Shown: one piece after another, positions 6,906 to 62,618 of the stretch
Numbering within the stretch: the first letter of the stretch is position 1
How the letters are laid out: every line of letters begins with the position of its first letter
From: a virus
Lineage: Duplodnaviria; Caudoviricetes
DNA length: 64,000 nucleotides
Reading direction: 5' to 3' (one strand)
IMG/VR virus record: IMGVR_UViG_3300037780_000034
Span: 253,723-317,722 of that record
Notes under the pieces: generated by a model
What the model was told of the DNA's origin: nothing
Seen by the model: only the letters and a program-made list of their open reading frames with translations
The model's database searches: none
Position numbers and translations under genes: made by a program

Positions 6906-8063
6906 ATGGCAAACCTATTCGAACAATGGTCAGCTACAAAAGAAGCACTAACTGACGGGCTGACTGGAAATCGTAAAACAGTTATGGAAACAGTATTGGA
7001 AAATACTAAGCGTTCCTTAATGGAAAGTGCAACCACTGGTGCAACAATGGCTGGTAACGTAGCAACTTTAAACAAAGTTATTCTACCTGTTATCCGCCGT
7101 GTTATGCCAACAGTCATAGCCAATGAATTAGTTGGTGTTCAACCAATGACTGGTCCTGTTGGACAAATTCACACTCTACGTGTGCGCTACGCTGAAACTG
7201 CTGCTGGTGTTACTTCTGGCCAAGAAGCACTAAGCCCATTTGCAATTGCAAGAGGATATGCAGGTAATGCAGCTACTGGTAAAGCAGAAGCTACAAGCAC
7301 TCTTGAAGGACGCCCAGGCCGTAAACTTAACATTCAAATCGTTAAGCAAACTGTTGAAGCTAAGTCCAGAAAGCTAAGTGCACGTTGGACCTTTGAAGCT
7401 GCACAAGATGCACAAGCGATGCACGGTATTGATGTAGAAGCAGAAATTATGGCTGCTCTTGCACAAGAAATCACTACTGAAATTGATCAGGAAATTCTAA
7501 CATCCTTGTCAACACTAGCTGGTGCTGCTGCTTACACCTTTGACCAAGGTGCCGTAAGCGGAACCGCAACTTTCGTTGGTGATGAACATGCTGCTCTTGC
7601 AGTTTTAATTAACAAAGCTGCCAACGATATAGCAGCACGCACGCGTCGTGGTGCTGGTAACTGGTTAGTTGTTAGCCCAAGCATCTTGACAGTTCTACAA
7701 AGTGCTACTACTTCTGCATTTGCAAGAACAACTGAAGGCGCTTTTGAAGCACCAACCAACACAAAGTTGGTAGGAACTTTGAACAACGTAATGAAAGTTT
7801 ATGTTAACCAGTATGCAACCAATGATGACGTTCTTGTTGGTTATAAAGGTCAAAGTGAAAGTGATGCTGCTGCATTCTACTGCCCATATGTGCCATTAAT
7901 GAGCACTGGTTCAGTTCTTGATCCAGACACTCTAGAGCCAGTAGTTGGCTTCATGACGCGTTATGGTTATGTAGAACTTTCCAACACTGCTTCATCTTTG
8001 GGCAATGCTGCGGACTATCTAAACAAAATAGAAGTTACTACTGCAAACCTATCATTCTCCTAA
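6906..8063 (+). CDS. gp23: Major capsid protein (T4 gp23-like)
   Basis: LPVIRRVMPTVIANELVGVQPMTGPVGQIHTLRVRY, RKLSARWTFEAAQD, AFYCPYVPL, GFMTRYG; likely maturation cleavage at LME|S; GGAG RBS. Confidence 0.97.
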   Translation: MANLFEQWSATKEALTDGLTGNRKTVMETVLENTKRSLMESATTGATMAGNVATLNKVILPVIRRVMPTVIANELVGVQPMTGPVGQIHTLRVRYAETAAGVTSGQEALSPFAIARGYAGNAATGKAEATSTLEGRPGRKLNIQIVKQTVEAKSRKLSARWTFEAAQDAQAMHGIDVEAEIMAALAQEITTEIDQEILTSLSTLAGAAAYTFDQGAVSGTATFVGDEHAALAVLINKAANDIAARTRRGAGNWLVVSPSILTVLQSATTSAFARTTEGAFEAPTNTKLVGTLNNVMKVYVNQYATNDDVLVGYKGQSESDAAAFYCPYVPLMSTGSVLDPDTLEPVVGFMTRYGYVELSNTASSLGNAADYLNKIEVTTANLSFS

Positions 8064-57786: not shown

Positions 57787-58090
57787 GGAAAAATTCCATG
57801 TGCCGCCGATTGGAAAAAAATGGTCTGTATAAAATGTTAGGGGTGGGACTCCCGAATCACTGATTCGCTGTACACTACATGTGCCTGGTGATTCGTCAAG
57901 CAAAATTTTTCAAAAATAAAAATATTTTTTTTCTAGCTTGACAGACATTTTTGCAACACAATAATGCGAATCGTTTAGTATTAAACTATCCGACATAATG
58001 GTTCAATGATTAAACCAATCATCGTAGGGGCACACAGTGGCCCACACAATGCCACCATTGTATTGCCTACCCTACCCTACCTGTGATTAC

Positions 58091-58133
58091 GGATGCCGGG
58101 TCAGTGGGCCGTACAATGGCTCTACGATGCTAT
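58091..58133. repeat. Intergenic repeat family A, copy 1 (43 bp)
   Basis: GGATGCCGGGTCAGTGGGCCGTACAATGGCTCTACGATGCTAT; 41/43 identical to 59538-59580. Confidence 0.9.
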
Positions 58134-58209
58134 GCACAATGCCCCTTACGATAGACAAAAAAATAGGCGGGGTATTATCCCCGCCATTATTATCCCATAT
58201 TGTTTAGGA

Positions 58210-59397
58210 TTATTCTTTTATTGTGGCGCGCGTGATATTTGTTTGTTTGATATTATTATATTCACGGTGTGCTTTCACGGTAAAGTCCACAGTAAGTTTT
58301 TCACCTGTTTCAATATATTTTTTTCCGGTGAACCAAGTGAATTGATTACCAGTATTATCGGTAAAGTTATACAGATATTGTTCACCATAACCGCGATCCC
58401 CCATTGCGATTTCACGATTGACAGTCAATTCAATTCCACGATACCGAGTCCCGATTGTTCCAAAGTAATCGGAAACCGTGGCGGCATTATTGTTTTCAAT
58501 TTGTTTTGCACGATCACGCACAATAACATTTACAGCCGACACGGCGATTGCAAGGTGTTTTGTTTTGATCAGATCATCACCGATAATAACGCGCAGGTTA
58601 TTGATATAATCGCCATTCTCAGGATTATATTCCATTGTGCGAAAATGATTCATTACTGTTTCCGCCATTGCAATATCTGCTTCGGTAACGGTAATCGGGC
58701 GATGCTTTGCATTCGGTTTAAGATCATGGAATACGCGATTTTCGGTTGTCACGATTGTTTCATCATAAGAGTTCATTGCCATTGCTTTTGAAACCCAACC
58801 GGATTCACGAATATTAGCAGCAGCATATTGCAGAACAGTTTTGGTATTATAATAATCGGAACCATATCCGGCGAATGTGAGTTCATCATTTACGGCAGTT
58901 TTAATTTCAGCGAGGAAACCAGCGCGACCAGCGATTTCCAGAGGATTATCGCATCCGGTAAAGTCACGCAAACATGTGCGCCCGATTGCCAGTTGATCAC
59001 CATTTGAATTTTCAAAAACATATACATCATTGCGAACACGATTATGCCCACAATGATCACATTCCGAAACCATATGACGGAAGCGTTCATTCAATTCGGT
59101 GCCAGCAATATTATTGACGATATTTTCACCATCACGCAATTCAACACGAGCGAGAAAACGATGATCACCATATTTCGGCGCATCACCCCAAACAACAATA
59201 TCCACAAAAGTGGTAGTAATATTGCGAGGACGATTGTCGATATAAATGGTAGTATCTTTGGGATATTCTTTGCCAATGGTGTAGCCGATTGGATTGTTAC
59301 CATACTTGTTTGCCTTGCGTGCAAGCTTGTCCAGCCGCTTGATCAGATCAGCAAGGTTCAGGGCAGGGACGGCAAAGGTGTCGATGGTGGTGGTCAT
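58210..59397 (-). CDS. Early protein with CxxC Zn motif and C-terminal OB-fold-like domain
   Basis: CDHCGH..GRTCLRDF; YFGTIG..YNFTD..TWFT..TVKAHREY. Likely ATG at 59397 after GGAG (ORF track starts at 59448). Confidence 0.7.
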   Translation of the reverse strand: MTTTIDTFAVPALNLADLIKRLDKLARKANKYGNNPIGYTIGKEYPKDTTIYIDNRPRNITTTFVDIVVWGDAPKYGDHRFLARVELRDGENIVNNIAGTELNERFRHMVSECDHCGHNRVRNDVYVFENSNGDQLAIGRTCLRDFTGCDNPLEIAGRAGFLAEIKTAVNDELTFAGYGSDYYNTKTVLQYAAANIRESGWVSKAMAMNSYDETIVTTENRVFHDLKPNAKHRPITVTEADIAMAETVMNHFRTMEYNPENGDYINNLRVIIGDDLIKTKHLAIAVSAVNVIVRDRAKQIENNNAATVSDYFGTIGTRYRGIELTVNREIAMGDRGYGEQYLYNFTDNTGNQFTWFTGKKYIETGEKLTVDFTVKAHREYNNIKQTNITRATIKE

Positions 59398-59446
59398 AGC
59401 GATCTCCGAATCGTTGCGGGACAATGCCCGATGAACATTGCCCAAC

Positions 59447-59475
59447 ATATAGGGAAATTTTAATACTACGTCAAC
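59447..59475 (-). promoter_or_regulatory. Alphaproteobacterial-type RpoD promoter
   Basis: GTTGAC-N17-CTATAT on the minus strand; CGATTCG in the leader at 59407-59413. Confidence 0.7.
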
Positions 59476-59537
59476 ACCATATTTTCACCATATAAGCGCC
59501 ATCATAGTGTCAGGCTACCCTACCCTATAAAAAATCA

Positions 59538-59580
59538 GGATGCCGGGTCAGTGAGGCGTACAATGGCTCTACGATGCTAT
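59538..59580. repeat. Intergenic repeat family A, copy 2
   Basis: See copy 1; both copies are preceded by CTACCCTACCCT. Confidence 0.9.
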
Positions 59581-59581
59581 T

Positions 59582-59863
59582 CTATGGCGTATCCAAGGTG
59601 GTGCTACGGATGCAAACATAATCGCGATTATTGACTAGATATGTTCGCATTTGTTTTTCGCGCATATTGGCGATAACGATATATCCATCATCCAGCCAAT
59701 ATACGGTATCACGATGGTTCCAATAATTAAAATTCAAAATATCATTGAATAATGTTGTTTTGCCGATGTCACGAATATCTGTAACACCGAATATATTCAT
59801 AGTGTTTTTATTATTGCGCATATGGGTTTCTTTTTGTTTTGACATTATGGGGGAGTATTTCAT
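59582..59863 (-). CDS. Small hypothetical early protein (start uncertain; likely 59845, 59821 or 59799)
   Basis: Open frame between repeat elements A and B. Confidence 0.5.
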   Translation of the reverse strand: MKYSPIMSKQKETHMRNNKNTMNIFGVTDIRDIGKTTLFNDILNFNYWNHRDTVYWLDDGYIVIANMREKQMRTYLVNNRDYVCIRSTTLDTP

Positions 59864-59871
59864 CCCCCATA
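59846..59871. repeat. Stem-loop family B, copy 1
   Basis: TATGGGGGA-GTATTTCA-TCCCCCATA; identical at 60266-60291 and near-identical at 61964-61987. Confidence 0.9.
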
Positions 59872-59887
59872 TTGTGTTTATGTATGT

Positions 59888-60187
59888 TTAATCGTTTTTG
59901 TGTTTATGTTTGATATTGTCTGCAATATCAGCCAGTTTGCGAAGCATTGTTGACGACATTGCCGCATATGTTGAATGATGAACAGCATTCAACGGTTCCG
60001 GCATATTCACAATGCCTCCGAGGTCGATGGATACACGAACAGGATCATATTCTTCATCCATAAACAAAACATAATAGCTTGATACTTCGTCGTCTTCAAA
60101 TACCGGAATTGCTTTCCATTGTTCTTTCGATTCAAAAAGAAAGTTTTCATACTGGGCGAGATTGATCTTTGCAGTTGTGGTAGTCAT
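59888..60187 (-). CDS. Hypothetical early protein (~99 aa)
   Basis: ATG at 60187 (MTTTTAKINL) after AAGGA; the ORF track start at 60301 runs through the hairpin. Confidence 0.65.
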   Translation of the reverse strand: MTTTTAKINLAQYENFLFESKEQWKAIPVFEDDEVSSYYVLFMDEEYDPVRVSIDLGGIVNMPEPLNAVHHSTYAAMSSTMLRKLADIADNIKHKHKND

Positions 60188-60265
60188 CTTTGATTTCCTT
60201 TTTAAGATGGACAATAGAATATATCTCACCATAAGATATATTATAAACTTCATCTTATATTGATA

Positions 60266-60291
60266 TATGGGGGAGTATTTCATCCCCCATA
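60266..60291. repeat. Stem-loop family B, copy 2
   Basis: Identical to 59846-59871. Confidence 0.9.
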
Positions 60292-60313
60292 ATAGTTTCA
60301 ATGTGATAGCCTA

Positions 60314-60676
60314 TTACAGTTTCCAATGTTTTGTGAAGCGAAGAACACCAGAACCCTTTTCCGTCAATTTGTAGAACACCTTGGCGCGACCGGGGCCTTC
60401 CGTCACTTTGGCCTTGTGGGTGGTAACAAGGCCGGATTGAACCAGTTGCAGAGTCAGAACGCGGGAAACCGGCGCACCACGATCAGCATAGTGATAGAAA
60501 CCATTCTTTTCCGCAATCATACGAAGGGCAAGCGCACGCCCTTTGATGTCATCGAGAACGCCAGTGCCTTCGGGGCGACCGGGGTTGAACTGGCGGCGAT
60601 CAACCTCGCCATCCTTCGTCAGCTTCGTGCCAGCGAAAACGGTGGCGGACTCGTGGGCAGGGGTCATGTTGGTCAT
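60314..60676 (-). CDS. GC-rich early protein with winged-helix (PadR/MarR-like) C-terminus
   Basis: LQLVQSGLV..EGPGRAKVFYKLTEKG; ATG at 60676 after AAGGA. Confidence 0.65.
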   Translation of the reverse strand: MTNMTPAHESATVFAGTKLTKDGEVDRRQFNPGRPEGTGVLDDIKGRALALRMIAEKNGFYHYADRGAPVSRVLTLQLVQSGLVTTHKAKVTEGPGRAKVFYKLTEKGSGVLRFTKHWKL

Positions 60677-60736
60677 AGTCTTGATCCTTTCAGGTTTGTC
60701 AGGTGGTGGCGGCGTTCCTCGCTGCCTGTGAAAGAA

Positions 60737-60766
60737 CATTTAGGCCAAGGAATCACACCTTGCAAG
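60737..60766 (-). promoter_or_regulatory. Sigma70 promoter with GANTC in the spacer
   Basis: CTTGCAA-GGTGTGATTCCTTGGCC (17 nt)-TAAATG on the minus strand. Confidence 0.6.
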
Positions 60767-61672
60767 ACAAAAAACAGCAAGATCACCAAAAAAATGATAA
60801 CACACTGAAAACACAGTGAAAAAACTTACCAAACACGATGATCTACAACCGATAGGGTCACGAATCGCATATGATAGCAGGCACATGATCCGAACATATC
60901 ACACAAGATTCGCCCTACTATAGACGGAATCCGTGCCATAGAAGGATAGTATATTCCGATAACAGAATATAATTACAAAATAATCATATAATAGATTCAG
61001 ATGTAAAGAATAATGGTAATATAGATGGATAAAGAATATTGATTATATATTAAGTAATTTCACTACGTTCCATTACTTAATAATCATAAAATATATACAA
61101 TTCTTCGTTAATCACTCAGAATTTGTATATATTTTCTTTTTTTTATTTTTAATTGATTAAAGTTATATTGTAATAATTATAGAATCTTTATATATATATT
61201 TCCGTGGATTAGACACACTTTAGCTTCTCCTGCTTAAAGTGTGCCCACCCTTGTAAGAAAAAATGTATATAAACATTTCCGTATCATAGACGATAGAGTG
61301 CATTGTCCGAAACTCTATTCTCCCAATATAAATCAACCATTTTTGTAATGTATATTACACGGTATGGAAAAGGCGGTTCTGCTGTACCTTTTTACAATTC
61401 ACTAAGCGCAAAATATTAACTGCCATATTGGAAACCTTGTTAATATTTTTGTGGGTATCAAAGCGTTCTGAAACTTCCCACTCTTTTTTCAGGGTATTAC
61501 CCCGAGACCTTAAATGAACTTAATAATAATATATTAAGTGCTATCAACCCAACTCCAGACCCAATCGGTTCATCTTCGGGGCTATATTCCTATAACAATG
61601 CGGATAGCTATGATTTAGACAATTTTTAATGACAAAATATTAAAACGAATCGCTCTAACATATGACCCAATA

Positions 61673-61701
61673 AACATAACACAATATATCCAGATTGTCA
61701 A
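61673..61701 (-). promoter_or_regulatory. Sigma70 promoter driving a region with no long ORF
   Basis: TTGACA-17-TATGTT with extended TG; CGATTCG about 20 nt downstream (61646-61652). Confidence 0.75.
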
Positions 61702-61702
61702 T

Positions 61703-61737
61703 AAAAAATAGAGGGAATCTTAATTGATTCCCTCTAT
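61703..61737 (-). terminator. Rho-independent terminator after the 41-aa peptide gene
   Basis: 12-bp perfect stem ATAGAGGGAATC / GATTCCCTCTAT with 6-nt loop, followed by TTTTT on the minus strand. Confidence 0.8.
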
Positions 61738-61772
61738 CATAAACCGTATATGTGACGAAAAGTGCCGCGATC

Positions 61773-61898
61773 CTACGCAGGCATCCAGTGACGCTTGCCG
61801 TCCGAATCACGATAGCTTTTCAGCTTCGGCGCACGCTTGGGACCAGCCTTCACATATTTGGCAACACGATTCCCCGTTCCTTTTTTCGACTTTGCCAT
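61773..61898 (-). CDS. 41-aa highly basic peptide
   Basis: MAKSKKGTGNRVAKYVKAGPKRAPKLKSYRDSDGKRHWMPA; AAGGA RBS, own promoter and own terminator. Confidence 0.7.
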   Translation of the reverse strand: MAKSKKGTGNRVAKYVKAGPKRAPKLKSYRDSDGKRHWMPA

Positions 61899-61936
61899 AA
61901 CATTTCCTTTCACTTGTTTGGCTTCACCTGTAACCC

Positions 61937-61964
61937 ATATAGGGCTATTCTCAGTAGGTGTCAA
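61937..61964 (-). promoter_or_regulatory. Alphaproteobacterial-type RpoD promoter abutting stem-loop B copy 3
   Basis: TTGAC-N17-CTATAT on the minus strand. Confidence 0.75.
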
Positions 61965-61987
61965 TGGGGGAATATTTCATCCCCCAT
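61964..61987. repeat. Stem-loop family B, copy 3
   Basis: ATGGGGGA-ATATTTCA-TCCCCCAT; one loop substitution. Confidence 0.85.
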
Positions 61988-61992
61988 AACAT

Positions 61993-62265
61993 TCACATAC
62001 TCCAATATGATTCACACGATGGCGACATATACGAGGGAGTATTGGCCTTTTCCATATATTTTTCACCCGTCATCAAATTCACACGTTCAACCAAGGGAAT
62101 ATTGTCATAATATTCGTCGGCATCCATCACACAATAATCCAACGGATAATATCCGTCACGATTGCAGGCACGAGTCAGTGCAATCTTCGCACCACGTTCG
62201 GTAGGAAATTCACGATCATTGAACATCAGACGATTGGTAGCACGGTGACAAACAACATAGCCCAT
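61993..62265 (-). CDS. Hypothetical early protein (90 aa)
   Basis: CAGGAG RBS within repeat C. Confidence 0.75.
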   Translation of the reverse strand: MGYVVCHRATNRLMFNDREFPTERGAKIALTRACNRDGYYPLDYCVMDADEYYDNIPLVERVNLMTGEKYMEKANTPSYMSPSCESYWSM

Positions 62266-62324
62266 AGTCGATTCTCCTGCTGAGTTGATAAGGTTACTTT
62301 AAGGGATGATTCCCACGGTGTCAA
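62263..62324 (-). repeat. Promoter+leader+RBS+ATG cassette, family C copy 1
   Basis: 62 bp, 54/62 identical to 62494-62555; TTGACA-17-TAAAGT, GAATC in the spacer, GGAG RBS. Confidence 0.9.
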
Positions 62325-62496
62325 CCACTTTTTTATCGTCGGAATAATCGTTCTTTCCTTTTCGATAAAAATGACACGCTATAGTATCACGTGTGACAGT
62401 AAGATAATTGCCACCAGTGTAAGAATTAAATGGACAAAAACAGCACGAAAACTTGTGAGAATAATCCCAACATGTTGAACAAGTTTTCGTTTCCAT
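62299..62496 (-). CDS. Small Cys-rich early protein (65 aa)
   Basis: CSTC..CCFC..CHFY; starts at the ATG of cassette C copy 2. Confidence 0.65.
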   Translation of the reverse strand: METKTCSTCWDYSHKFSCCFCPFNSYTGGNYLTVTRDTIACHFYRKGKNDYSDDKKVVDTVGIIP

Positions 62497-62555
62497 AGTC
62501 GATTCTCCTGTTGAGTTGATAAGGAATGTTTAACGGTTGATTCCCACAGTGTCAA
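62494..62555 (-). repeat. Promoter+leader+RBS+ATG cassette, family C copy 2
   Basis: See copy 1. Confidence 0.9.
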
Positions 62556-62618
62556 TAAGTTTTTTTCATTGTGCAAATTTTCACAATAATAATTATTACT
62601 ATACAAAAATACACAGTG

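Follow-up and report, generated by a model that had tools for sequence, protein, structure and literature searches.

Organization of the locus

The window analysed here (the whole stretch of 64,000 nucleotides) is the final 64 kb of the 317,722-bp IMG/VR virus record IMGVR_UViG_3300037780_000034, which represents an uncultured phage with a GC content of 31%, a CheckV completeness of 85% and 24 tRNA genes. Within a leftward block of small early-type genes it carries a ~0.9-kb unit that contains an RNA gene. The features of this unit and its borders are as follows (positions are those of the window unless the genome is named, and helices are written in the direction of transcription where this is informative):

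61707-61738, minus strand: intrinsic terminator of the upstream small-gene operon (13-bp stem and T-run)
61673-61701, minus strand: sigma70-type promoter TTGACA-17-TATGTT with TG before the -10 hexamer (promoter scan)
61505-61666, minus strand: variable 5' domain, about 160 nt, with hairpins at 61663-61637 and 61539-61518 and CAUAGC at 61612-61607
61490-61504, minus strand: hairpin H1, directly before a conserved AAAnGAG joiner (by eye, in all aligned members)
61337-61488, minus strand: conserved core H2-H5 (covariance model R1, 95.5 bits; covariation)
61481-61451, minus strand: core helix H2
61449-61410, minus strand: core helix H3, 11-bp stem
61410-61407, minus strand: UGCG joiner of the core
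61393-61367, minus strand: core helix H4, loop UACAGCAGAACCG
61367-61337, minus strand: core helix H5, with an inserted hairpin
61293-61318, minus strand: copy-specific insertion hairpin ATAGAGU/ACUCUAU, not in the 120-kb paralogue
61275-61291, minus strand: twin module 1, GUCUA-N4-ACGGAAAU, with the box word ACGGAAAU at 61282-61275
61212-61245, minus strand: family-conserved hairpin H6, CACACUUUA/UAAAGUGUG, with compensatory differences from the 120-kb paralogue
61198-61214, minus strand: twin module 2, GUCUA-N4-ACGGAAAU, with the box word at 61205-61198
61049-61158, minus strand: 3' tail, made up of the next three features
61158-61131, minus strand: A-rich tract
61135-61088, minus strand: hairpin T1
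61081-61049, minus strand: hairpin T2, loop GGAACGUAGUGAA
60769-61048, minus strand: hairpin-rich 3' trailer, with hairpins at 60970-60951, 60941-60918 and 60912-60861
60844-60780, minus strand: long terminator hairpin, followed by a U-run at 60774-60769 that ends the trailer and the ~0.9-kb region
60737-60765, minus strand: promoter-like site TTGCAA-17-TAAATG of the next gene (by eye; absent from the promoter-scan output)
60676, minus strand: ATG of the next gene, 120 aa, with weak PadR/winged-helix similarity

The near-consensus leftward promoter and the terminator just upstream of it had been proposed in an initial annotation made from the sequence alone, and both were recovered here. Since the terminator (61738-61707) lies directly upstream of the promoter, the RNA unit is insulated; its transcript is predicted to start near 61666. 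That annotation had also reported a region free of open reading frames of 60 aa or more, which holds in every frame: no such frame with a start codon lies inside 60810-61650 or elsewhere between the promoter and the next gene (translation table 11), and the longest small ORFs of the RNA region reach up to 48 aa. Because the genome carries a tRNA with a CUA anticodon, TAG and TGA read-through was examined as well, and neither opens a frame of at least 60 codons with a start codon in the RNA region. This tRNA, which reads UAG and is labelled Pyl by ARAGORN, lies outside the window at genome 138544-138617. The stop codons of 160 long frames are TAG in 11, TAA in 113 and TGA in 36, and together the CUA tRNA and the rarity of TAG make amber suppression late in infection possible.

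Candidate 3' ends of the RNA are the AT-rich hairpins T1/T2 (61135-61049) or the stronger terminator at 60844-60769, and the trailer between them may or may not belong to the mature RNA. A self-search of the genome found no relative of the 280-nt trailer.

Several other features of the neighbourhood were recorded. The GC content of window 58000-62400 is 40-54%, well above the 31% genome mean, with its maximum over the 120-aa winged-helix-like gene (60314-60676), and this suggests a block of horizontally acquired early genes. The winged-helix-like protein has a weak paralogue at genome 8399-8617 (39% identity over 76 aa). A stem-loop, AUGGGGGA...UCCCCCAU, is present in three 96%-identical copies between small early genes (59847-59871, 60267-60292 and 61964-61989), one of which scores as terminator-like on the plus strand, and a 73-nt direct repeat (62262-62334 and 62493-62565, 85% identical) takes in a promoter-like site together with the beginnings of two small genes that are unrelated to each other.

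Folding and anatomy of the RNA

Compared with dinucleotide shuffles, the RNA proper (61666-61040) folds with z = -6.2 in the minus-strand sense and -4.8 in the plus-strand sense; for the 300-nt 3' trailer the values are -4.8 and -3.2, respectively, and no shuffle folded as well as either stretch. The 901-nt region as a whole has a z of -6.2, again with no shuffle as good, so the hairpin richness noted by the initial annotation withstands this control. The extent of structured RNA proposed there, ~0.9 kb, must be reduced: a promoter-driven RNA gene is indeed present, but the conserved RNA covers about 620 of the 900 nt, namely the first part of the unit from about 61666 to 61049.

All of the stems that had been listed exist where they were placed. 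GTGGG/CCCAC (61481-61451) is the family helix H2, the 11-bp stem at 61449-61410 is H3, CACACTTTA/TAAAGTGTG (61245-61212) is the family helix H6 and TTAAGTAAT/ATTACTTAA (61081-61049) is T2. TGTAAT/ATTACA (61359-61344) is likewise present, but it is an insertion specific to the window copy and not a family helix, and ATAGAGT/ACTCTAT (61318-61293) and AAATGT/ACATTT (61278-61261) are also real stems but insertions of this copy. A long-range CCCCGA/TCGGGG pair that had been suggested gives way to a local structure, in that TCGGGG is the 5' arm of hairpin H1 (61504-61490), which is found at the same position in every aligned family member. The reported lack of a group I or group II intron agrees with a search of the whole window against Rfam, which gave no family at gathering score and chance-level hits at E values up to 10.

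The tail motif GAACGNAGUGAA is confined, in this phage genome, to RNA tails of this family, and GAA- or GNRA-looped hairpins of a similar kind lie 3' of the RNA in its T4-like members.

A covariance model and the family it defines

A degenerate pattern taken from the best-conserved block retrieved 11 IMG/VR loci whose flanks align with shared blocks. RNAalifold applied to eight sequences predicted 28 base pairs, 15 of them with compensatory changes, and the covariance model R1 was built from this eight-sequence alignment. The window copy, itself one of the eight seeds, scores 95.5 bits (E 9.5e-24; model positions 1-136 of 136; 61335-61488, minus strand) and forms 27 of the 28 model pairs. It has the H4 loop and joiner pattern UAA.A.GGUAYMGC...ACCGCC (61368-61395) and UGCG, and, as in the rest of the family, an H6 with an AAGUGUG end and the same word on both of its sides.

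A relaxed pattern found at least 117 viral stretches among the matches listed. R1 matches all 108 newly fetched, non-seed IMG/VR loci, with scores of 72-123 bits apart from two loci cut by contig ends; six seed contigs match it by construction. Seven bacterial pattern matches were also scored, and R1 confirms that of Candidatus Njordibacter alone; those in Neisseria and the other bacteria lack R1 confirmation and were set aside as chance matches. The Njordibacter chromosome (NZ_CP159830.1) has a full-length member (82.8 bits, 7589-7728 of the fetched stretch) that adjoins a gene for a 182-aa serine recombinase and a TRAP transporter operon, and it probably lies at the edge of an integrated element.

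Covariation was measured in 52 members that are less than 85% identical to one another. In these, 90.4% of the cells pair, compared with 36-45% when the partners are slid; 21 of the 28 pairs show changes on both sides; and the covariation score is 0.552 against 0.20 in shuffled alignments, none of 500 of which reaches the real value of any measure. H2 is paired in 100% of the cells and all five of its pairs co-vary, and H6, downstream of the core, is a consensus helix of eight pairs, three with compensatory changes. The cells include 149 G-U and 12 A-C combinations, and this excess of G-U shows that the minus strand of the window is the sense strand. The core (H1-H6) of the ~620-nt RNA thus belongs to a large phage RNA family with strong covariation. 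Homology and covariation bear out the view of the initial annotation that the region encodes a promoter-driven functional structured RNA and is neither coding sequence nor spacer, and we regard it as almost certain that the window contains a structured RNA gene of this family, which we call the twin-box (or extended Polynucleobacter-1) family. The family is widespread in aquatic T4-like phages and is catalogued only in part.

Searches by other routes found no further members. A 20-mer of the identical tail (below) has no match in IMG/VR, the two small proteins that flank the RNA have no relatives or only distant ones, and jumbo contigs reached through a 90-aa neighbour do not have the RNA. Blastn of GenBank phages with the window region and three family members returned nothing. 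R1 found no match in the cultured phages Melnitz, phiN3, phiM12, ACP17 and S-SRM01, which have a GIY-YIG-like gene. It was also run on the cultured jumbo phages PA5oct, Phosso and SCTP-2, which have a RusA-like gene: Phosso gave no match, and three 17-20-bit matches in PA5oct and one of 17 bits in SCTP-2 were all rejected on score. Two of the PA5oct alignments (20.0 and 18.6 bits) were inspected and are generic terminator-like AAAAGGG/CCCUUUU hairpins without the loop motif. Thus blastn, and R1 on these eight cultured genomes, found no cultured example of the family. Sinorhizobium phage Phosso (PV764938.1) has a ~1-kb annotation-free gap between its RNase HI gene and its RusA-like gene (1486-2501 of the fetched stretch), and this gap, which R1 does not match, may contain an unrelated or very divergent RNA.

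Two copies of one short word in each RNA

The same word of at least 6 nt occurs at two homologous positions, before and after H6, in 41 of the 52 members; only 20 of the 52 matches individually beat 95% of shuffles, and their positions are consistent. Examples of these twin words are GGAAAA, AGGAUAAU, GUGUCAAGU, UGGUAAAGU, AGUCAAG and AGGAAAUAGUU, with ACGGAAAU in the window copy, where twin modules 1 and 2 are identical at 13 of 17 positions. The words are lineage-specific and all are purine-rich (G-N-N-A-A-like). No complementary partner of the box word was found at a consistent position within the RNAs, and its complement is not enriched in the phage genome or in the flanks of 27 loci, where it occurs 16 times and the controls give 7-11. 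Instead of encoding specificity, the words could form a structural motif.

Four paralogues in one phage genome

A search of the phage's own genome with R1 found four copies that score 57-106 bits:

genome 120354-120506, plus strand: 120-kb copy, 105.7 bits
window 61335-61488, minus strand: window copy, 95.5 bits
genome 12303-12454, minus strand: 12-kb copy, 66.3 bits
genome 251842-252020, plus strand: 252-kb copy, 56.8 bits

Their cores are 54-59% identical and are no closer to one another than to members from other phages. A self-search showed that window 61047-61221 resembles genome 120575-120747 at 90% identity; overall, the window and 120-kb copies are homologous over about 350 nt, and about 105 nt of their tails are letter-identical. 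Diverged cores joined to an identical 105-nt tail point to a recent tail exchange between these two copies. In the blocks upstream of the tail the two differ in compensatory fashion (AAAAGG/CCUUUU against AAAUGG/CCAUUU, and GUGGG/CCCAC against GUAGG/CCUAC), and the top of the long hairpin is re-paired. The paralogues differ by indels whose lengths are not divisible by three, and the small ORFs show no conservation. Among the four copies there are at least three different twin words (CGGAAAU twice, AGGUAAU and a GAGAAU-like word).

By eye, each copy is preceded by a TTGAC(A/G) -35 hexamer and a TA-rich, -10-like hexamer; the promoter scan confirmed the window's own site only and missed that of the second copy. 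No common 5' domain could be aligned among the four paralogues, and this domain is ~70 nt long in the 12-kb copy compared with 173-177 nt in the 120-kb and window copies. All four RNA genes have a GANTC site either in the promoter spacer or no more than ~20 nt from where transcription is predicted to begin (61646-61651 in the window copy; the forms among the copies are GATTCG and GAATCG, and GAATCA in the 252-kb copy), and two further GANTC sites make up the base of the 60912-60861 hairpin in the trailer.

The genes around the copies are not shared. No protein neighbour common to all four was found, the 42-aa basic protein encoded upstream of the window copy has no relatives near the others, and the downstream genes of the paralogues are mutually unrelated. 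The T4-like contigs have a more regular setting: of the 42 non-redundant loci with an upstream ORF call, this ORF is GIY-YIG-like in 21 and a RusA-like resolvase in 11, and the RNA faces a convergent 75-aa gene and a gp26-like baseplate hub gene, so that the T4-like members occupy convergent junctions and have no gene downstream that they could regulate. Only the 252-kb copy (at 251.9 kb, beside a RusA-like resolvase) has this type of setting in the present phage. The window, 12-kb and 120-kb copies are extra and lie among unrelated genes. A single copy was found in each of five further large contigs (148-330 kb). The 120-kb copy is closely followed by a CCA-adding-enzyme-like gene (genome 121103-122245) that appears to be split into a 115-aa ORF and, ~40 nt further on and in another frame, an ORF of at least 252 aa; a frameshift, a short intron or a mistake in the sequencing could account for the split.

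Relationship to the Polynucleobacter-1 motif

The one catalogued RNA that touches this family is RF01718 (Polynucleobacter-1, 141 nt). Among 22 distinct T4-like contigs tested (2 of 6 positive in a first set and 14 of 20 in a second), 16 have an RF01718 match that lies on the same strand as the R1 core and stops 11-13 nt short of it, and from this position directly 5' of the core we conclude that RF01718 is the 5' third of a larger RNA. The core (H2-H6, the twin boxes and the tail) is not in Rfam 15. The Polynucleobacter-1 motif was described from 16 examples in freshwater or estuarine DNA and one Polynucleobacter genome; its authors found that the 3' half was not always detected, noted a link to a phage-like gene, suspected an association with phages and saw the motif in no purified phage (Weinberg et al. 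2010, PMC2864571).

The copies in the present phage differ in that all four have unrelated 5' domains in place of RF01718. In the window, 60600-61800 gives no RF01718 match even at E values up to 10 (the gathering threshold is 37 bits), the other three copies give none either, and no Rfam family of any kind matches any of the four copies at gathering or E-value thresholds.

Possible functions of the RNA

How, then, might such an RNA act? The initial annotation had offered a scaffold, a decoy, an sRNA precursor or a replication primer as candidate roles. The explanation that we favour as a whole, and judge somewhat better than even, is that the locus forms a transcription unit of its own, read leftward, whose product is a large structured non-coding RNA that acts in trans by way of its twin boxes. 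Host RNA polymerase would transcribe the RNA early, and the multi-helix body would act as RNA in trans, probably together with a protein partner, without regulating the neighbouring gene. The two identical, single-stranded ACGGAAAU words (61282-61275 and 61205-61198) would be the recognition surface, read twice by the same partner, be it a protein or a nucleic acid, while the conserved loops (UACAGC...ACCG of H4, UGCG and the GNA-type loops of the tail) would hold the fold or bind protein. For the functional part of this explanation, a trans-acting RNA or RNA-protein particle that is read through its twin boxes, the chances appear to us slightly short of even; it is favoured by the RNA's own promoter-like site and terminator, the absence of a consistent downstream gene, the invariant loops and the lineage-specific repeated words. 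Searches for box complements and of the genes beside the four copies found no partner protein or target. A more specific proposal, that the twin boxes are programmable words with which each RNA reads the same 6-11-nt target twice, is a long shot. If it were true, the twin words might, for example, link two nucleic acids to each other or guide a dimeric nuclease or resolvase, four paralogues would run several specificities in parallel, and lytic phages would harbour an RNA-guided system of a new class.

Foremost among the rival explanations is an RNA-primed replication origin like ColE1 RNA II or the T4 ori(uvsY)/ori(34) transcripts, which we think fairly unlikely. A persistent hybrid would form in the A-rich tract (61158-61131), T1 and T2 would be single-strand DNA loading signals, and the four copies would be four start sites for a genome of more than 318 kb. 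Each copy does have the expected parts (a promoter-like site seen by eye, a folded RNA, a purine tract extremely rich in A and a pair of GNA-loop hairpins), the ancestral copy lies beside recombination genes (the RusA-like resolvase) and the RNAs of the T4-like contigs beside gp46-like genes, and this large genome has four copies where the five other large contigs have one each. However, GC and AT skew follow the direction of transcription and are featureless at all four copies, neither an initiator gene nor iterons came to light, rA:dT hybrids are weak, and the RNA is also present in a bacterial chromosome beside a serine recombinase. The very deep structural conservation also speaks against an origin; to our knowledge neither ColE1 RNA II nor the T4 origin transcripts need so deeply conserved a fold or invariant loops. 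Its length of 450-650 nt, phage habitat, many helices, GNRA/GNA-type tail loops and lack of a cis target would also suit a self-assembling architectural RNA, a homo-oligomer like ROOL or GOLLD in which loops and twin boxes are the contacts between subunits. We consider this decidedly unlikely, as the RNA has no sequence or model similarity to ROOL or GOLLD, and identical subunits would have to touch through complementary or receptor motifs, which two copies of one word do not provide.

The neighbours in the T4-like contigs raise the further idea that the RNA is the partner of a DNA-cutting enzyme, guiding or regulating the upstream GIY-YIG-like or RusA-like protein or a serine recombinase, with the twin boxes as programmable target words. 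The frequency of GIY-YIG-like and RusA-like genes at the 42 loci, the serine recombinase next to the bacterial copy and the lineage-specificity of the words are consistent with it, but three of the four copies here, the window's included, have no such neighbour, this phage genome has no GIY-YIG homologue of that type, cultured phages have the GIY-YIG-like gene without the RNA, and no complementary targets were found, so that it seems very improbable. The readings that deny a trans-acting RNA altogether, namely a cis-acting leader of the 120-aa winged-helix-like gene, an AT-rich hairpin spacer or a set of small ORFs, are largely refuted and deserve almost no weight. The unit does point toward the 120-aa gene, stems do arise by chance in AT-rich DNA and small ORFs of up to 48 aa do exist; but a terminator hairpin with its U-run and a separate promoter-like site stand between the RNA and that gene, the paralogues precede unrelated genes, the covariation and the 95-bit model match exclude chance, and neither the conservation of the small ORFs nor the lengths of the paralogue indels are those of coding sequence.

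Significance

Large structured RNAs without a known function are rare, and those that have been solved (RNase P, riboswitches, OMEGA and bridge RNAs) gave unexpected biochemistry. The twin-box family, present in at least 117 viral stretches, has covariation support comparable to that of many curated families, and only its RF01718 fragment is catalogued; the window copy shows that this catalogued 5' domain is dispensable. The present genome further indicates that one phage can keep four old, diverged paralogues, each behind a promoter-like site (identified by eye), and that tails have been exchanged between copies while the cores diverged. Should the twin words determine specificity, experiments could use the four copies as a natural variant set.

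Comparison with known RNAs

The twin-box RNA resembles GOLLD and ROOL in being a large (>400 nt), multi-helix, promoter-driven, stand-alone phage RNA with strong covariation and no known biochemical function. It differs from them in that neither their models nor their sequences match the window RNA, and in its distribution: GOLLD and ROOL are found in phages of Firmicutes, whereas the twin-box RNA is found in aquatic T4-like myophages. Twin identical boxes have not been described for GOLLD or ROOL. Like ColE1 RNA II and the T4 origin transcripts, it is a promoter-driven RNA of ~550 nt that is folded and has an AT-rich, easily unwound tract and hairpins behind it, but no origin signature was found, and a fold that is deeply conserved across unrelated phages and in a bacterial chromosome copy would be unexpected of a primer.

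The lambda nut sites, with boxB, offer a third parallel. There too, two near-identical short RNA words differ between phage lineages, and in many twin-box members one of the words lies in a purine-rich hairpin loop, such as GAC-GGAAAA-GUC, that is like lambda boxB. Lambda boxB hairpins are read by the N protein and co-vary with it; the present analysis identified no protein like N. The arrangement differs as well, in that the twin words lie ~60-80 nt apart within one structured RNA and not in two mRNA leaders.
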